NCBI GenBank assembly: GCA_019358935.1
Contig: JAHHIK010000091.1
Location: 1 to 34,281, forward strand
Source of the DNA: Tolypothrix carrinoi HA7290-LM1
GTDB taxonomy: Bacteria > Cyanobacteriota > Cyanobacteriia > Cyanobacteriales > Nostocaceae
DNA: 34,281 bases
Reading direction: 5' to 3'
Within the stretch, counting starts at the first letter, position 1; every line of letters begins with the position of its first letter. Shown in pieces: positions 4,102 to 34,078 of the stretch. The notes below the pieces were generated by a model. It searched no databases. It was not told the DNA's origin and saw only the letters and a program-made list of their open reading frames with translations. A program made the translations under genes and the position numbers.

Positions 4102-6497
4102 GTGCGATACGATGGCGCACGAAGGGCTGGAAGCCCCTATACATAAAGCTTCCAAAAGATGAGTGAGGAACCGATTCCTCCAGTAAGCGTGTCCAAGGCT
4201 GTTCCTAACCTTCCCATGCACTACTGGTAACGGTGGTGTGTGAAGCGGAAAGTAAAGCCCAAGGAAGCATTTAGCCTAAAAATGTAACCGGGCAAAGGAA
4301 AGATTGGATGGGTGAATGCAAATGAATCCTTGTTAAGGCATCGTCAGAAAAGATCATCGAAAAGGCTGACACGGTGATATGAGTAAATGTACTGAATACC
4401 CCAAAATTATTCAGTTAAGGTTCAACTCCCCATTTTAGTTGAATTAGGACACCAAACACAAGGCGTGTAGAGAGGACACCCTACCCAATTAAATCTCATC
4501 CGTGCGTAACGTAGTAACCCCAATGAAGTCTGGGATTTACCCAGTAAGTAACCCGTAAGGGAAGCCGAATTCTTCAGTGGGTAAAGGATGCTGACACCAA
4601 GCGAAAGCCACCAAGCCGAAAGGCAAGGGGAATCCATAACCCGGTGGATAAAGCAATTGCCTAACCTGAAAGGGTGCTGACGGGAAGCAGGTGAGTCAAC
4701 TAAAATCCGTTGTAATGATTTCAAACCGAGGTGTAAGTTAGATGCAGGCAACTGTAAACCGAACCAAGGGACAGACTGATTGGAATTGTGTTAATCAAAG
4801 CAAAGCGAATCGGATTGTTAGGAATTTGAGACAGCGAATCTTTAGAGCCAAAGCTGAGGGCAACCCTAAAAAGGTTCGCTCGCTCCAGAAATTAATGTTA
4901 CGCAGCTATTCTAACCGCTTAGTTAGCGTTAGAAAAGTGACGCAGCATAACCGAGGTAAATATACACCAGGTATAGATAAAGTAGTAGTTAAAACTCCTG
5001 CTTACAGAGGACAATTAGTTGATAAAATCGCTAATTATACCCCTTGTAAATCATTACCTGCACGAAGAGTTTACATCCCAAAAGCTAATGGAAAGAAGCG
5101 TCCTTTAGGAATCCAAGTAATACATGACCGCGCCATACAGGCAATGGTTAAAAATGCCTTAGAACCCGAATGGGAAGCTGTTTTTGAGAGGTCTAGTTAT
5201 GGTTTCCGACCTGGGCGTAGCCCTCATGACGCAATTGCGAGCATCTATAACCTCGCTCGTCCGAATAAACGGAAAAAATGGGTTGTAGATGCAGATATTC
5301 AGGGGTGTTTTGACAACATTTCTCATGATTTTCTTCTAGAGCTTCTAACGGGCTTTCCGGCTCGTGAATTAATTAAACAATGGCTTAAAGCAGGTTACAT
5401 GGAAGGGGAGTTATGGCATCCAACAGATGCTGGTACTCCTCAAGGCTCTGTTGTCAGTCCTCTATTAGCTAATATAGCGTTACACGGTATGGAATCAGCC
5501 CTTGGAGTTAAGTATAATAAGGAGGGAGAACTCAGGGCAACAAGGGCATTAGTGAGATTTGCAGATGATTTTGTGGTATTTTTTGAGTCCAAAGAAGATG
5601 CAGAAAATGCAGTTAAAATTCTGACCGATTGGATGAAGTCTAGGGGACTTACTCTATCAGATGAAAAGACGAAAATAGTGCATTGAATTGAAGGATTTGA
5701 CTTTCTGGGATTCAACATCAGACACTATAAAGTCTCAACCAGTAAAACGGGATTAAAACTGCTAATTAAATCTAGTAAATCTTCCGTGTTAAAGATTCGG
5801 AATAAACTGCGTAATGAATGGCGTAACTGTCAAGGTAAGTCGAGAGATGCAGTTATTAAGAAGCTCAACCCAATTATCAGGGGAGAAGCAAATTATTTCC
5901 GAATAGGTGTATCCTCTGAAATATTCAATTCCCTCGACCATTGGCTGTATGAAAAGCAGAAAAGGTATGTCAAACATACTCATCGTCACAAATCTGATAA
6001 ATGGCGTAAGGCTAAATGTTGGGGAAAATTAAATCTTGATAGACCAAACGACAACTGGGTTTTTGGCAATAAACAAATCGGAGCCTATATGTTGAAATAT
6101 GCTTGGTTTCCTATTGAGAGACATGTCTTAATTCAAGGTAAATCATCACCTGATGACCCCAAACTAAAGGATTACTGGAGAAAGCGAGAGGAGGTTAAAG
6201 CTAAATCCGAACTAATCAAAAGCAGACAAAAGATAGCCCATCGGCAAAAATATGCCTGTCCCATATGTGGAGAATCCTTGTTAAATGGCGAAGAGTTACA
6301 TCTTCATCATAAAAAGCCAAAAAGTCAGGGCGGTGGGGATAATTACGGCAACATACAACTTGTTTATTTATACTGCCATCAGCAAATACACTCTGGTACA
6401 GTGAGTAGTTTATGACTTGCTTGATCCGGATGCGGTCAAAGTCGCACGTCCGGTTCTGAGGGGGCGGGATTATAGCGATATAGTCCTGCTACCCGAC
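4102..6497 (+). mobile_element. Full-length group II intron, probably inactive
   Basis: 5' GTGCG at 4102; DV GATCCGGATGCGGTCAAAGTCGCACGTCCGGTTC at 6423-6456; DVI ending ACCCGAC at 6497; encloses an RT ORF. Confidence 0.9.
4742..6415 (+). pseudogene. ltrA: Group II intron RT/maturase/HNH protein with one in-frame TGA at 5684-5686
   Basis: RT motifs GFRPGRS, DADIQGCFD, GTPQGSVVSPLLANIAL, RFADDF; VH*IEGFDFLG continues in frame into domain X and HNH (CPICG...HLHHK...GGGDNYGN...CHQQIH). Confidence 0.9.
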
Positions 6498-20599: not shown

Positions 20600-23359
20600 T
20601 TAGAAGAGAGAAATACCAACCATTTCCCATGCTGTTTTAACCGCTCTCTGTTCTGTGCTGTCATTTCCATATAGTGTACCAGCAACCTGATACGTAGACA
20701 TTGCCGCATCTCGGAATTGGCTGTTGGGGTTAAGCTTCAGCAGTGCCTTATACCAAATCTGTCCAGCTTTATCAGAACCAATGCGTATTGCAGTTTCATA
20801 AAACGCCTTATTCGGAATGCCTGAGTTGATGTGAATACCTCCATTGTCCTGGGTTCCTCTATAAAGGTCTTTGAAGTGAGCAACTTGAGCATCTTTGCCT
20901 ACAGCGGGATTATCATATGCGGTACCAGGTGCTTTTAGCGATCGAGAAGCCGATTGCTCTTTGGAATTCAAGATATCTTGCTGAAGTAACCAGGCAATAA
21001 AGCCTGGTGCCAAGAGCCAGTCTCCTGTTTGCGCTGTTTGTTGCAATCGCGTTTGTTTAATCAAGGAGGCGAAAATATCAGCATAGGATTCCTGAAGAGC
21101 ACCGGGTTGTCCATAGTATTTAAATTCTACAGTTTTATAGATAAAAGGCAATGCGATTTGGTGATAAGTGAAATCAGGTAAATATTGGATTTGAGGTGGC
21201 GCATTATACTGCTCACCATCCCACCAAGCGTTTAAGAAATTTTTGTCTACAATTCTAACTGGTGGGACATTGAGATCAAAATTGAATAAGGTATTGAGGA
21301 ATTTAACTGCATATGCGACATCTTCATTAATCTTTTTAGCTGCTTCTTGCGTTTCCTGCGTATTAATGCCTGGCTTCTCTATTCTTGGAATGTTACTAAC
21401 ACCTATTCCTTGGGCACTAGTTTGTAATAGCTTGAAAATATCATCTAACTTACGATTAACTAATCCAGTAGTAGAATCAATAGCTCCAAAGTCTGTAAGC
21501 AAAGTCAATGCTTTCCGCAATGACGGCTTTAATGATTCTAACTGCTTATTGACTTGTGCTAGTTCATATTTTGCTCTTTCTCGATCTTTTTTCGCTGCTT
21601 CTGCTTGTGTGCGTGCAGATTTTGCTGTTTGAATAGCCTCTTGGGCGTGCAACTTGGCCTGCGCTGTCTCCTGGATTGCTTTTTCCTTCGCCTGATTTAC
21701 TTGAACTAATTGTTGTTGTGTTTGTTGGTATTGCTGTCTTACTATCTCTTCTTGTTTTTTAGCAGAAGCTAAATTTTGCTCAGCTGTTTTTTTAGCATTT
21801 TCTGCATTTATGCGTTTCACATTTACTGTTTCAAACTGTTTTTGCAAAGAAATTTCTTTCTCCTCAAGGCTACTTACTTTCTTCCTTAATTCATGTTCTT
21901 TTTTTGCCAACTGCTCTGCATTGCTTAAACTTTGCGTTGCTACCCAGCCTGCTCCTGCTGCCCCTACCAGCATTAAACCAAGAGCTACAGCCCCAACCCG
22001 AAGCAGCTGATTCGCTTTACGGTTTGCCTCTGCTAAGACTTGCTTTGCTTCGGCCTCTGCCGTCAATTTTTTTTGAATATCACGCTTTTCCAGTTCTTGA
22101 CTCGCATCCAGAAAACGACGATCATCATCTCCCAAACTTTTTCCTTCCGCCCAAGCCCTTGCGTTCTGTAATACCTGTCCCCGCAGCAACCGCGATTCAT
22201 CCTGGTACTTTGAAGCAACCCAAGCATTAAATCCATCTGCATAAGGGCGTAACTTCTCAAGTTCCTGGTCAAACCACGATAGGTTAAACACCCCCATGTA
22301 AATACGGTTATAAATTTGTAACCTACCCTGACGCTTCACAACTAGCCCCGTTAGCCGCAATTGCGTCTGCTCAGGACTGTTATTCGCTGGAATTTCTTCC
22401 TGCTGCACAATCTGCCGACACAGCCCTAACCGTCGTCCTGCTCGTAGCTCTCCGCCTTCTAACAGGCGATCACGAATTGTCTTCAAATGCTCAGGATTGT
22501 CCTGTGCCTCCCAGTTTTCCAGGATGCGCGAGCGAACTAGCTGCTCAATCGCTGCTGCTTCATCCCCTGCCACAATTGAGTCAGGAGAGCTAAGAACCAA
22601 TTGGCAGAGTTTTTGGACTAGAAAGGGCTGTCCATCAGTCCATGCTAGGACGACATTTAAAACCGCCTCAGGGTTCTCTGCTTTTCCTACTAACCCCGGT
22701 ATCAGGGGTTGAACTTCGTGAAGTTGGAAACCTTCCAAGTTAATGGCTCGTCCAATATTAAAGGGCGTGCGGTTTCTGTCTTGAATCAGGTCTGAGGGAG
22801 TAGCAACACCTAATAGGGCAAAGGTAAGACGGCTGTATTCCATTTGTTCTATCCGCTGCTCATAAAAAGCGCGGATCAGCGCAAAGAAATCATCTTTGAA
22901 ATCGAATTTGAGAACACTATCAATTTCATCAAAGAACAGAACAATAGGTTGAGAAATTTCTACCAATAGAACAGTTTCAATAAACTCCACAAAGCGTTGG
23001 AGTGGTGGGATATCTTCTCTTTCATTCCACCATGCCCGGTGCTGAATTTTGATCCCTAGACTACTTTTTAACCGCCCAATAATACCTTGATACCAGCCAG
23101 CGACAGTTGCATTATGAGTTTCCATGAAATTGAGATTGACTACTCCACAGACAATCCCCTCTGCCCGCAAACGTTGAGCTGTGCGGTTCTGCAAACTCGA
23201 TTTGCCCATCTGCCGGGAGTTGAACACATAGCAAAACTCCGCTGCTTTCAGGGCTGCATAAAACTCCTGGTCAGCTTGACGCACCACATAGCTGGGAGCA
23301 TTCCCTTCCAGTCCACCGCCTACTTTATATGCATAGCCTGGAATCGGTAGCGTGCTCAT
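20600..23359 (-). CDS. AAA_35 NTPase + TM + coiled coil + thermolysin (M4)-like C-terminal domain
   Basis: YVVRQAD, SRQMGKSSL, FFDEID, TPFNIG, WTDGQPFL; TM VGAVALGLMLVGAAGAGW; M4 motifs GALQESYADIF and DNGGIHINSGIPNKAFY. Confidence 0.85.
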   Translation of the reverse strand: MSTLPIPGYAYKVGGGLEGNAPSYVVRQADQEFYAALKAAEFCYVFNSRQMGKSSLQNRTAQRLRAEGIVCGVVNLNFMETHNATVAGWYQGIIGRLKSSLGIKIQHRAWWNEREDIPPLQRFVEFIETVLLVEISQPIVLFFDEIDSVLKFDFKDDFFALIRAFYEQRIEQMEYSRLTFALLGVATPSDLIQDRNRTPFNIGRAINLEGFQLHEVQPLIPGLVGKAENPEAVLNVVLAWTDGQPFLVQKLCQLVLSSPDSIVAGDEAAAIEQLVRSRILENWEAQDNPEHLKTIRDRLLEGGELRAGRRLGLCRQIVQQEEIPANNSPEQTQLRLTGLVVKRQGRLQIYNRIYMGVFNLSWFDQELEKLRPYADGFNAWVASKYQDESRLLRGQVLQNARAWAEGKSLGDDDRRFLDASQELEKRDIQKKLTAEAEAKQVLAEANRKANQLLRVGAVALGLMLVGAAGAGWVATQSLSNAEQLAKKEHELRKKVSSLEEKEISLQKQFETVNVKRINAENAKKTAEQNLASAKKQEEIVRQQYQQTQQQLVQVNQAKEKAIQETAQAKLHAQEAIQTAKSARTQAEAAKKDRERAKYELAQVNKQLESLKPSLRKALTLLTDFGAIDSTTGLVNRKLDDIFKLLQTSAQGIGVSNIPRIEKPGINTQETQEAAKKINEDVAYAVKFLNTLFNFDLNVPPVRIVDKNFLNAWWDGEQYNAPPQIQYLPDFTYHQIALPFIYKTVEFKYYGQPGALQESYADIFASLIKQTRLQQTAQTGDWLLAPGFIAWLLQQDILNSKEQSASRSLKAPGTAYDNPAVGKDAQVAHFKDLYRGTQDNGGIHINSGIPNKAFYETAIRIGSDKAGQIWYKALLKLNPNSQFRDAAMSTYQVAGTLYGNDSTEQRAVKTAWEMVGISLF

Positions 23360-23367
23360 GGCGATCG

Positions 23368-25557
23368 TTACCTTCTCTCTTGCAAATGGTCACGAAAATA
23401 CGAGCGATACAAATCGCAACGAATAGTTGCCTGATTTCCTTGCAGACTAACCAATCCCATACTATCCAGCTTATATGCGGAGGTCGAGTTCAATTCTGTT
23501 GCTTTACTTTTCATGACGACCTGCCGCAGAGCTTCAGCCAGTTCAGGATACTGCTGCAAATTGAGTAAATGCCGTCGCAAGTGATCAATGTAAATTCCTG
23601 CTTCAGTAGGTGCTTCCGAGATCAGTTGTGCTAAAGTCACATCCTGCCGACGAAGATGGTATAGCGCCTTACGGACGAGGTAAGGATGTCCACCCACCAG
23701 AGTCACAAGCTGCTCCACCTGTTGTCCACTCCAGGTCAGCTCATAGCGTTGTGCTAAATGTTGCACCTGAATTCGGTTAAACTCCGGTAACTCTACATTC
23801 ATACCCACATTAAATGGTGACTGGTTGATGTTTTGAGGTATATACGCTTCAGTCGAATGCACAACCACCAGCCGCAGCTTTGCCCATAAATCACTGGAAG
23901 AATCGCCGTACCTTGCCACCTCGTACCAGGAACGGAGTAAGCCGGAAAAATCATCCATAACTTCTTGATGGGGGAATACTAAATCCACTTCATCCAGTCC
24001 CAAAACAATAGGGCTATCAATTTCCTCTAAAATGCACTCCTCCAAATAGGCATTACATTTGTCCTTACTGCCGTAACCCTTCCAGTAGTCCTCCAACTGG
24101 TTCAGGCGCTTCAACCGTCGCCCAATTTGCTCACAGAACCAGCGTAAAAATTGATCCAGGTCGGTAAACAGTCTGTTATCTGCCCGCTGAAAGCTTAAGG
24201 GAATTGCCTGATAGCCTTGCTCCTTGGCGTAATTTAGTATCCTCGCCATCAGTGAAGTTTTGCCCATCTGCCGTGGAGCTTTAATCCGGATCAGCGCCCC
24301 TGGTTGCACAATCTCCCGATAACAATCTGCCTCAATCGGCGGGCGCTCAATATACAACCCTGAGCTGAGCGGCACTGACCCTCCGGGTTCCCGGTACAAC
24401 TCTGGTTCTGCTACGGGTAAAGGGGGGGAATCTGGGCTATCTTCATTCGGGAAGACTGGCCCAGCAGAGGTACTCATCGCTGATGCGTGTCCTGTTGCTA
24501 ATAGGCTCAGCGCCTCCTGAATGATCATGGGTGTATCCAGAGGTGACTTCCATTCCCGCTGCTGAATGTTTTGTAAGTATCCCCGCAGGTCATAATTTAA
24601 GGGAGAGTTCAGTGGGAAGTTCACCCGGATTGGCAGGATCATTGGTCGCCGATCCCCACGGCTGTCGCGTAACAGCTTTGCTCGTCGCACTTCCTCCGTC
24701 ACCATCTCACTGACCGCCGATTGCTCAGACAGCAGTAACAAAAAGTAATCACTTCGTTCTAACTCAGCATCAATTCGCTGTGGCCAGGTCTCACCCAGTC
24801 GGATGCTCTCCCCTGCCATGAAGGCTTCATGCCCTGCTGCTTTAAGCGCCTCGAAAAACTGTTGAGCCAGATCTCTATCAGGGGATTGGCTGCGATAGCT
24901 GATAAACACTCTGGTCATCCTGGTTAGGGAAGATATAGGTGTTTCCTCGTCGCCTTGAACCTGCTTGCGTTTACTCTGGGTGGATAGCGATCGCTTCTTG
25001 ATTTTAAGGACAGGTGTAGAAGACTCCGGGATACTTTGTAGATCAATTAAGTTACAGCCAAACTCAAAAGATTCTTTGTAAGTCTTATTAGACGCGATCG
25101 CTCGATAAAAACCCTTAGCAAACTTGATAGCGGCCTTATCGCCGATCTCTTGATTCATTCCAACTACACAGTCGATGTGCTGATAAATGGCTTTTGCTTG
25201 TTCCTCGGAATAGCAGGCGTTCAAAAAGACACATTCCACGTTTGCTTTAAACAACTTAAACAGTCCTCCTAACGCTGTAGAACTGACCAGTTGCATCTGT
25301 CCCAGCTCATTTTCTAAAGCTAACCCCTGGCTACCCCCACCATGCCCCGAAAAATGAACGATTTGAGGCGTGTGATCCAGCAGAATAGGCTGTAGGTCAT
25401 CCACCCGCACTGCCCAACGAGTAATGATTTCAAAGAGGTCTCGATTTTTGGACTGATCCACAGATGCCTGAATTTCTCGCACCTCTTCGTCCAAGCGCAG
25501 CCTATCAGTACTCTTCGGGTTTGCAGTCAGAATCAAAATCTTCTTCATGGCAACCAC
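23368..25557 (-). CDS. CHAT + TIR + AAA_35 NTPase
   Basis: CHAT VHFSGHG and LNACYS; TIR VFISYRS...SEMVTEEV; AAA_35 YIERPP, APRQMGKTSL, LDEVD, SPFNVG, GGHPYL. Confidence 0.88.
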   Translation of the reverse strand: MVAMKKILILTANPKSTDRLRLDEEVREIQASVDQSKNRDLFEIITRWAVRVDDLQPILLDHTPQIVHFSGHGGGSQGLALENELGQMQLVSSTALGGLFKLFKANVECVFLNACYSEEQAKAIYQHIDCVVGMNQEIGDKAAIKFAKGFYRAIASNKTYKESFEFGCNLIDLQSIPESSTPVLKIKKRSLSTQSKRKQVQGDEETPISSLTRMTRVFISYRSQSPDRDLAQQFFEALKAAGHEAFMAGESIRLGETWPQRIDAELERSDYFLLLLSEQSAVSEMVTEEVRRAKLLRDSRGDRRPMILPIRVNFPLNSPLNYDLRGYLQNIQQREWKSPLDTPMIIQEALSLLATGHASAMSTSAGPVFPNEDSPDSPPLPVAEPELYREPGGSVPLSSGLYIERPPIEADCYREIVQPGALIRIKAPRQMGKTSLMARILNYAKEQGYQAIPLSFQRADNRLFTDLDQFLRWFCEQIGRRLKRLNQLEDYWKGYGSKDKCNAYLEECILEEIDSPIVLGLDEVDLVFPHQEVMDDFSGLLRSWYEVARYGDSSSDLWAKLRLVVVHSTEAYIPQNINQSPFNVGMNVELPEFNRIQVQHLAQRYELTWSGQQVEQLVTLVGGHPYLVRKALYHLRRQDVTLAQLISEAPTEAGIYIDHLRRHLLNLQQYPELAEALRQVVMKSKATELNSTSAYKLDSMGLVSLQGNQATIRCDLYRSYFRDHLQERR

Positions 25558-28253: not shown

Positions 28254-28290
28254 TTGACATTATGTAGAGCTAGTACTACAAATGTAGTAT
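28254..28290 (+). promoter_or_regulatory. Sigma70-type promoter overlapped by a TACTACA-AA-TGTAGTA palindrome
   Basis: TTGACA at 28254-28259; palindrome at 28274-28289 over the expected -10/+1 region. Confidence 0.6.
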
Positions 28291-28363: not shown

Positions 28364-28444
28364 GGGGCCGCGATTGGTGTTCGACTGCTCCGAAACCAAC
28401 AAACGGACGGTTGCAGGATTCGGGTTCGATTCCCGACGGCTCCA
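28364..28444 (+). ncRNA. Mini-tmRNA: tRNA-like domain only
   Basis: GGGGCCGCGATTGGTGTTCGAC 5' end; GGATTCGGGTTCGATTCCCGACGGCTCCA 3' end; G3-U70 pair; stemless D loop; only a short hairpin between the halves. Confidence 0.75.
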
Positions 28445-28480: not shown

Positions 28481-28689
<209 letters not shown>

Positions 28690-28936: not shown

Positions 28937-29128
28937 GTCATCCGTGCCCTAACAGAAGAAGCATACATACACATTCATAACGGCCCTAAGGTAGTAAAGT
29001 TCGAGCGATCGGACTAAGCGAAGCATGATTTCTAAGTAAGAGCGCAGATTTAGCGTGCGTGCCCACTGCCAATATTTGGTAAGAGCGACCGTAGCTGTAA
29101 AAAGCTTCTTGAACTTGCACGGAATGAT
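28937..29128 (+). ncRNA. Scaffold unit 2 with permuted 23S rRNA H67-H71-like cargo
   Basis: TCCGTGCCC...AGAAGCATACATAC / GCTTCTTGAACTTGCACGGA; cargo contains ATAACGGCCCTAAGGTAG and GCGACCGTAGCTGTAA. Confidence 0.75.
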
Positions 29129-29137
29129 TTAAGACTT

Positions 29138-29279
29138 AATTCCGCGCCCTAACTTGTGAAGTCTACACACACTCCGGCAACGGAATGCAGGTTCAAATCC
29201 TGTCGCTCCCTTTGATGGGAGCGTAGCCAAATTGGTATAGGCAATTGTGAAAACTGCTTTGCGTTCCTTGTGCGGAATT
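29138..29279 (+). ncRNA. Scaffold unit 3, YrlA-type circularly permuted tRNA mimic
   Basis: T arm GCAGG-TTCAAAT-CCTGT, loop-closed acceptor CGCTCCC-TTTGAT-GGGAGCG, then D arm GCC-AAATTGGTATA-GGC, inside AATTCCGCGC/GTGCGGAATT. Confidence 0.85.
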
Positions 29280-30155: not shown

Positions 30156-30277
<122 letters not shown>

Positions 30278-30653: not shown

Positions 30654-30731
30654 GTTGCCGCGCCCCGATCGCAGAAGCTTACATAAGTCTGAAAAATTTA
30701 TACACAATGCTTCTACAACTTGCGCGGTGAC
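30654..30731 (+). ncRNA. Scaffold unit 5 with a lone tRNA-Phe-like anticodon stem-loop
   Basis: GCCGCGCCCC...AGAAGCTTAC / GCTTCTACAACTTGCGCGGT; cargo ATAAGT-CTGAAAA-ATTTAT. Confidence 0.75.
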
Positions 30732-30778: not shown

Positions 30779-32224
<1,446 letters not shown>

Positions 32225-33867: not shown

Positions 33868-34078
33868 TCCTGCGTGCCCCAACTCTTGGAGCCTACATAC
33901 TAGTACGAGAGGAAAAGTAACACTGTCAAATACAGTGGGCGTGTGTGAACGGGGAGTACGAAGAACCTGGGAGGTAGGCTTAAAAGTAGCTATCCTTGAA
34001 AGAGTGTGTAACAACTCACTCTTTGGAGTCCCTCTAGTAACTGAGAACACGCAATGCTCCACCAACTTGCACGCAGGA
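33868..34078 (+). ncRNA. Scaffold unit 6 with 23S sarcin-ricin loop and H42-H44 (L11-binding) mimic
   Basis: TCCTGCGTGC/GCACGCAGGA; TGGAGC/GCTCCA; CTAGTACGAGAGGA at 33900-33913; GGAGGTAGGCTTAAAAGTAGCTATCCTTGAAAGAGTGTGTAACAACTCACT at 33970-34020. Confidence 0.85.

Follow-up and report, generated by a model that had tools for sequence, protein, structure and literature searches.

A tmRNA cut down to its tRNA-like domain behind a TrcR-type promoter box in the cyanobacterium Tolypothrix carrinoi

Tag-less tmRNAs have been described from only a few sources. Passages of two papers (PMC11915505; PMC4131195) report tmRNAs without a coding sequence (CDS-less) from mitochondria, two plastids, possibly two bacterial groups, and the mycobacteriophage DS6A. 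According to the same passages, the DS6A form inhibited the tmRNA of E. coli, ‘perhaps by titrating SmpB’, and, as cited, this inhibition did not need charging; 2-residue Ala-Ala tags also exist beside the organellar CDS-less tmRNAs (PMC11915505). In vitro, as stated in parts of PMC3895274, PMC2481249, and PMC3929946, a tmRNA consisting only of the tRNA-like domain (TLD) undergoes peptidyl transfer with SmpB and yields polyalanine, and Shimizu & Ueda 2006, as quoted in the latter two, saw each TLD hand the chain on to a further one. In B. subtilis, alanine tails serve as ClpXP degrons, according to part of PMC8012679, and Y RNAs encoded close to Ro60 genes mimic tRNA, according to part of PMC4201824. 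The trn operon of Anabaena PCC 7120 is induced by translation inhibitors and has been studied as an aid to survival under translational stress (PMC8421152). The cellular role of a tag-less tmRNA has so far been guessed for mitochondria and read as that of an inhibitor in one phage.

Here, we describe an 81-nt element of this kind in Tolypothrix carrinoi HA7290-LM1. The window, i.e., the whole 34,281-nt stretch of DNA analysed, is contig C91 (JAHHIK010000091.1) of a 7.96 Mb genome. The initial annotation, made from the sequence alone, had proposed a tmRNA reduced to its tRNA-like domain, and this is confirmed: in the Infernal search that it suggested (cmscan), RF00023 (tmRNA) matches 28364–28444 on the plus strand with 47.0 bits, which equals the gathering score, and an E-value of 9.5e-16. 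Both model ends are matched, the acceptor, D loop, and T arm are present, and 24 nt of the element stand against 316 in the model. The ssrA-like ends, G3·U70, discriminator A, and stemless D loop read by eye from the letters are all borne out by cmscan and pairing, and the tmRNA ends occur in standard order around a short hairpin joint, within the range of about 60–85 nt of TLD-only RNAs.

Table 1. The mini-tmRNA, its predicted promoter, and the downstream genes (window positions).
Feature	Position	Strand	Basis or remark
Predicted promoter	28254..28290	+	-35 TTGACA 28254-59, 17-nt spacer, -10-like TACAAA 28277-82
TrcR-type box TGTAGTAT	28283-90	+	sequence as in trn promoter, PMC10272220
Inverted copy of box, over -10	28274-80
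Mini-tmRNA gene, tag-less, 81 nt (tRNA-like domain plus capped P2 hairpin)	28364..28444	+	cmscan, pairing, conservation
Acceptor stem 5′ strand with G3 of G3·U70	28364..28370	+	sequence; pairs 7/7 with 28437-43
Stemless D loop, unpaired, GG and UUCGA	28371..28384	+	RF00023 alignment
P2-like hairpin in place of entire mRNA-like domain	28385..28416	+	covariation; same build in DS6A
Connector	28417-19	+
T arm	28420-36	+	5-bp T stem
T arm, acceptor 3′ strand, and discriminator A (28444)	28420..28444	+	RF00023 alignment
Next element, tRNA-Ala-like frame (7-bp acceptor with G3·U70, D arm, T arm)	28481..28689	+
Conserved ORF, 66 aa	28728..28928	+	neither Pfam nor NCBIfam match
Conserved ORF, 247 aa	29404..30147	+	family not assigned
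vWA protein, 477 aa, distantly Ro60/TROVE-like	30791..32224	+

The mRNA-like domain (resume codon, tag frame, stop, and pseudoknots) is absent from 28364–28444, where only a 32-nt hairpin with no stop codon in any frame is found. The CTGC/GCAG closure and the missing tag frame and pseudoknots had been recognized correctly, but the hairpin is not featureless: CUGC/GCAG and CCG/CGG stems are followed by an AAA/A internal loop, a 2-bp CC/GG inner stem, and a 7-nt loop, AACAAAC, of which the internal loop and inner stem are conserved. Discriminator A is followed by CTA, i.e., the gene does not encode CCA, which would have to be added post-transcriptionally. We take the UCGA-type D-loop motif to be an SmpB-contact motif and assume that the D loop and connector both serve SmpB binding. 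A constrained fold gives the 7-bp acceptor with G3·U70, a free D loop, the hairpin, and the T stem. Because support from free folding is weak (z −1.74, with 7 of 200 shuffles equally good; an extended stem drawn from the flanks has z −0.92), the structure rests on covariation rather than on energy. ARAGORN calls the element neither tRNA nor tmRNA at default settings and at -ps90, and an undetermined pseudo-tRNA at -ps80 or lower.

A search of homologous loci, also suggested initially, found the element in cyanobacterial relatives, phages, and several bacterial phyla. A general pattern returned 86 stretches from viral sequences, where 74 of the 80 examined have a 7-bp acceptor with G3·U70, and at least 120 matches from bacterial genomes, where 51 of the 80 examined pass (50 after dropping a full tmRNA, L181) and 29 lack the 7-bp acceptor, most of these being 3′ ends of full tmRNAs. 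For covariation, the 133 passing loci were reduced by five with a possible upstream 5′ end and the rest merged into 102 distinct sequences, 90 of which measure 74–83 nt and 50 of which are less than 85% similar; pairs were counted by motif anchors, since a MAFFT alignment misregisters the 5′ strand. At positions free of the search pattern, the P2 pairs form in 50, 50, 45, 44, and 39 of the 50 relatives (shuffle maxima 32–42), and the two free T-stem pairs in all 50 (shuffle maxima 34 and 39). To avoid circularity, two further scans used only the inner loop and 3′ end as anchors, with no 5′ end required; they gave 139 matches, 96 of them distinct, and 80 of the 96 have an upstream 7-bp acceptor. 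G3·U70 occurs in all 80, and UCGA in 65, as compared with 33 of 458 control windows. Of the 96 distinct matches, the 16 without such an acceptor resemble 3′ ends of full tmRNAs. A loose form of the internal-loop motif is present in 45 of the 50 relatives and in 20 of 38 full-length tmRNA calls, so the idea that this loop is simply the tmRNA P2a/P2b junction is only partly borne out. Overall, 28364–28444 is very probably a selected TLD-only RNA.

Tag-less mini-tmRNAs are widespread, with carriers among many phages and in several phyla of bacteria. Viral members comprise 116 distinct sequences (185 of 225 viral loci), and bacterial carriers include Nostocales, Poribacteria, Saccharibacteria, and spirochaetes, among others. 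A tRNA gene lies within 1.5 kb of 19 of 73 viral copies, and Streptomyces phage Shaeky has an unannotated copy in a tRNA array. In Poribacteria (L148, L178, L214, and L222), a chromosomal 82–85-nt tag-less tmRNA sits at a conserved site between decarboxylase and Na/Ca exchanger genes. All five non-cyanobacterial carriers checked have a full ssrA and smpB, which rules out the mini-tmRNA as an ssrA replacement in Poribacteria and Saccharibacteria. No partner gene is common to all phyla; smpB is near the element at five of 226 loci, four of which are full-length tmRNA loci. The only mini-tmRNA seen near smpB is a 70-nt form in Saccharibacteria (L184, 3324–3393) that overlaps or abuts the smpB neighbourhood.

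Within cyanobacteria, a strict pattern found the element in at least 20 of 201 genomes of the family, a lower bound, as known variants miss the pattern, and BLAST found it in 9 of 401 genomes of the phylum, once as a 3′ half. The loci compared hold 33 distinct 81-nt versions. The 23 non-identical versions that belong to the same subtype as the window have an average identity to it of 0.96 for the element, compared with 0.64 for the upstream flank and 0.54 for the downstream flank, two versions of a shifted subtype being out of register in this comparison. Stem changes are mostly compensated, with double compensatory changes among cyanobacteria; the invariance of the AACAAAC loop is circular, as the loop served as an anchor, and two loci (L230 and L244) carry variants. 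The element is accessory and cassette-like: it is missing from many copies of the same operon and has lost its 5′ half in one. Several copies have a ~22-nt palindromic T-loop insertion, identical in L003, L007, L019, and L034, which we take to resemble the small dispersed Nostoc repeats that insert in tRNA genes. UCGA is lost in one cyanobacterial subtype. Besides the window's subtype, a second one is found in long tRNA arrays, where tRNA-Glu and tRNA-Tyr flank it.

The element is the first one behind the predicted promoter and precedes tRNA-like and Y-RNA-like elements, in agreement with its earlier placement as the first member of an operon of RNA mimics. In part of PMC10272220, TGTAGTAT is given as the TrcR site of the trn promoter, and the position of the box here, at or near the −10, is as in the TrcR regulon; promoter activity and TrcR binding upstream of the mini-tmRNA are thereby predicted. 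With a search pattern drawn from this window and scanned up to 1 kb upstream of the loci, the arrangement was found in 19 of 27 cyanobacterial loci, which are kin rather than independent, and in none of 98 control segments; six of the remaining eight loci carry the box with other spacing. The TGTAGTAT octamer occurs 206 times in the host genome. On contig C35, a reverse-strand promoter near 21600 with trn-type TGTAGTAT spacing precedes putative translation-related genes, a presumed EF-Ts-like ORF and a presumed RNA-ligase-like ORF.

The operon looks as if translation stress switches it on. In the element at 28481–28689, a stem that we infer to be Y-RNA-like substitutes for the anticodon arm and ends in a tRNA (28540–28613) with an amber-reading CTA anticodon; the anticodon of this inner tRNA differs between relatives. 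The 66-aa ORF is presumably ubiquitin-like. The 477-aa protein matches the TROVE-domain chains 9L5Y/9KOP over residues 25–394 (phmmer, E 5e-4), and its Atlas neighbours are TROVE at scores of 0.94–0.97, while Pfam reports vWA alone. Operons related to this divergent TROVE/vWA operon add a ThiF-family gene at eight loci and a second ribosomal L7/L12 gene at 11. A long bulged stem recurs five times around the TROVE-like gene (28521–28633, 28944–29122, 30160–30273, 30660–30725, and 33874–34072), with differing inserts, i.e., a tRNA, T-arm hairpins, or none, and with no Rfam family at cut-off; these stems are candidates for a new Y-RNA-like class. The Ro60-binding Y-RNA-like stem or repeat motif that closes such a tRNA-like module is absent from the mini-tmRNA, which has no YrlA match; the sole YrlA match in the window (29186–29242, E 9.5) is far under the cut-off. 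Elsewhere in the window, a group II intron (4742–6497) has its reverse transcriptase and maturase/HNH in two separate ORFs, and two minus-strand AAA_35 genes (20600–25557), one with CHAT and TIR domains and the other with an M4 peptidase domain, form a possible conflict or defence module.

In Anabaena PCC 7120, the plasmid pCC7120delta holds the second subtype letter for letter (84/84; NC_003273.1, 51736–51819) inside the trn operon, with 64 of 81 positions identical to the window element. The two elements share length, fold, inner loop, and the TGTAGTAT promoter box but differ in surroundings, the sister copy lying in a tRNA array between tRNA-Glu(UUC) and tRNA-Tyr(GUA) and the window element in the TROVE-like operon. 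The feature table of NC_003273.1, which leaves out RNA genes, has nothing over the sister copy. RNA-library contigs from four runs in four studies span it with no internal difference, contigs that may come from DNA and carry no information on processing, strand, or level. The terms tmRNA, ssrA, and tRNA-like do not occur in the main text of PMC8421152, nor do terms for the element in the text, figures aside, of one of its supplementary files. In the literature searched, mostly outside subscription papers, no paper described a tag-less tmRNA from cyanobacteria or as part of the trn operon. A 2012 paper on the trn cluster may mention a tRNA-like element. Within the same operon (L267, 3321–3450), a tRNA-like gene ends in the Y-like 3′ motif of window positions 30246–30275, and this sharing suggests a putative exchange between the two operon types.

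We propose that the stand-alone TLD is made under translation stress and supplements the full tmRNA of the host. Lifting of TrcR repression would allow transcription of the operon, RNase P and 3′ trimming would release the mini-tmRNA, CCA would be added, and AlaRS would charge it via G3·U70. Host SmpB and EF-Tu would then bring the charged mini-tmRNA into a non-stop ribosome with a vacant A site, where the nascent chain would be transferred onto it. With no message for resuming, the next Ala-mini-tmRNA/SmpB would enter, so that a short alanine tail would replace the SsrA tag; the broken mRNA would be displaced and the product freed by drop-off or hydrolysis. The sharing of SmpB would also reduce normal tagging. 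That the mini-tmRNA is alanylated, binds host SmpB, enters non-stop ribosomes, and adds alanines without a tag is, in our judgment, the most likely reading, to which we give about an even chance. The strict G3·U70 would argue for charging, and the kept D-loop and connector motifs for SmpB binding, while a stress promoter that tRNA arrays and genes of the RNA repair type also have would fit a benefit to the cell. Full ssrA and smpB genes in the host and in the five further carriers checked also favour it, as do the covarying stems, the polyalanine made in vitro by a TLD-only tmRNA with SmpB, the degron role of alanine tails in B. subtilis, the existence of Ala-Ala tags and of CDS-less organellar tmRNAs, and the sister copy in the inhibitor-induced trn operon. 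Against it, the sole in vivo report for this type of RNA, in the passages of PMC11915505 and PMC4131195, is the inhibition by DS6A. Further points against it are the D loop before UCGA, which has 10 nt in the element and 8 nt in host ssrA, the lack of a TGTAGTA box on the sense strand in the 600 nt upstream of either host rtcB, and the accessory nature of the element (20/201 and 9/401 genomes), with its T-loop insertions and UCGA/GGA losses. We also know of no release step for a peptidyl-mini-tmRNA.

The main rival reading makes the RNA an SmpB sink or ribosome-blocking competitor, which, charged or not, would dampen trans-translation and spare stalled proteins during antibiotic slowdown, or, in phages, block host rescue. 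We regard it as possible but rather unlikely. It agrees with the inhibition of endogenous E. coli tmRNA by the DS6A form (passages of PMC4131195 and PMC11915505), with the mostly viral membership of the family, and with the rarity of a nearby smpB. However, G3·U70 is invariant in the 80 relatives found without 5′ selection, though the cited inhibition is independent of charging, and a sink would presumably not require an alanine identity pair this strict; a rescue inhibitor would also be odd within an operon studied (PMC8421152) as aiding survival under translational stress. Because of G3·U70, the SmpB motifs, and the stress setting, tag-less rescue is favoured over a pure sink, although the two overlap, as productive entry would lower normal tagging too. 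An SmpB/AlaRS decoy and a tag-less rescue RNA were also the two functions put forward in the initial annotation, and they stand as the leading candidates. It is improbable that the element is instead a sacrificial or structural tRNA mimic of an RNA repair or defence module, i.e., a nuclease decoy or Ro60-like ligand with no ribosomal role. Y-like and tRNA-like RNAs and the TROVE-like gene do adjoin it, Y RNAs near Ro60 genes mimic tRNA (part of PMC4201824), and an RNA with no anticodon loop may escape anticodon nucleases; but this RNA also turns up where there is no TROVE-like gene, whether by itself or within a tRNA array, the Y-like repeat motif is missing from it, and its conserved motifs are the tmRNA-specific ones.

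Phage-derived cargo hitchhiking in mobile tRNA arrays, with no role in today's cyanobacteria, is quite improbable: the distribution is patchy, deleted and interrupted copies exist, and the contig, with its integrase, group II introns, DNA polymerase A, and conjugation coupling protein, looks mobile, but the element is far more conserved than its flanks over the 23 comparisons and shows double compensatory changes within cyanobacteria. Scarcely credible is a degenerate tRNA-Ala, or an integration scar or decay product of host ssrA, despite the pseudo-tRNA call of ARAGORN at relaxed thresholds and an acceptor 5′ strand the same as that of host ssrA. The top Rfam match is tmRNA, the element is not among the 150 scored of 510 candidates when RF00005 is run on its own genome to E 10, and it has neither a D stem nor an anticodon arm with a GC-ending anticodon, which speaks against the better-scoring degenerate tRNA-Ala that the initial annotation had listed among its possible refutations. 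The 3′ 29 nt are identical to host ssrA at 18 positions and to DS6A at 23, and BLAST gives no match between element and host ssrA, which rules out a recent deletion product. An attachment remnant would have only a 3′ end, near-identical to host ssrA, and would lie at the border of an island close to an integrase; as had been claimed, both ends are kept, and the closest integrase gene is 25 kb away. Since the host has a full ssrA (contig C107, 136.2 bits) and one copy of smpB, and conservation of the element far exceeds that of its flanks, it is no scar. Separately, on host contig C87 (31229–31698), three tandem tRNA-like matches of 120–126 nt score above the Rfam tRNA cut-off and are missed by ARAGORN.

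To return to tag-less rescue, a broader and more tentative proposal is that mini-tmRNAs may be a stress-inducible second rescue arm adopted by free-living bacteria, with SmpB-dependent alanine tailing on intact 70S ribosomes. If true, such tailing would need no decoding and so would keep working despite poisoned elongation or damaged tRNAs, and the survival effect of the PCC 7120 trn operon would be partly due to an unannotated RNA. A host translation-stress promoter on a tag-less tmRNA would be an argument that the cell benefits from it, and since deletion and derepression strains of the trn operon have been published, the function can be tested directly. The class also marks an annotation gap: ARAGORN misses it, and entries of the curated tmRNA database are checked for a tag frame, which leaves a common RNA class largely unseen.

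Compared with standard tmRNA (RF00023), the element shares the ends, G3·U70, D-loop motif, P2a, and T arm, and has none of the tag frame, resume codon, and pseudoknots. The CDS-less tmRNAs of jakobid and oomycete mitochondria and Mallomonadaceae plastids, as described in passages of PMC11915505, are likewise TLDs with no tag frame and a presumed SmpB partner, but they are the sole tmRNA of the organelle and mostly permuted, whereas the window element has a full ssrA beside it in the genome. The proposed outcome would be similar to RqcH alanine tailing in B. subtilis (part of PMC8012679), which also adds untemplated C-terminal alanines as a degron; this is an analogy only, as RqcH works on the split 50S with ordinary tRNA-Ala, and our proposal involves the 70S, SmpB, and a dedicated RNA. 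The closest relative is the TLD-only RNA of DS6A, confirmed here at JN698994 28478–28557, which measures 80 nt, has an identical acceptor stem, and agrees at 60 of 83 aligned positions. Both have a stemless D loop with UCGA, a P2 hairpin, an A-rich internal loop, a short inner stem, and no encoded CCA, while DS6A differs in its connector (GGA lost) and shorter inner loop. The DS6A RNA is phage-borne and read as a host inhibitor, whereas the window element belongs to a cyanobacterial operon under what appears to be a host stress-repressor box. In structure, the element is thus of the DS6A kind; what is new is its setting, namely a TrcR-type stress promoter, a Ro60/TROVE-like operon, and an unannotated sister copy in the trn operon of PCC 7120.
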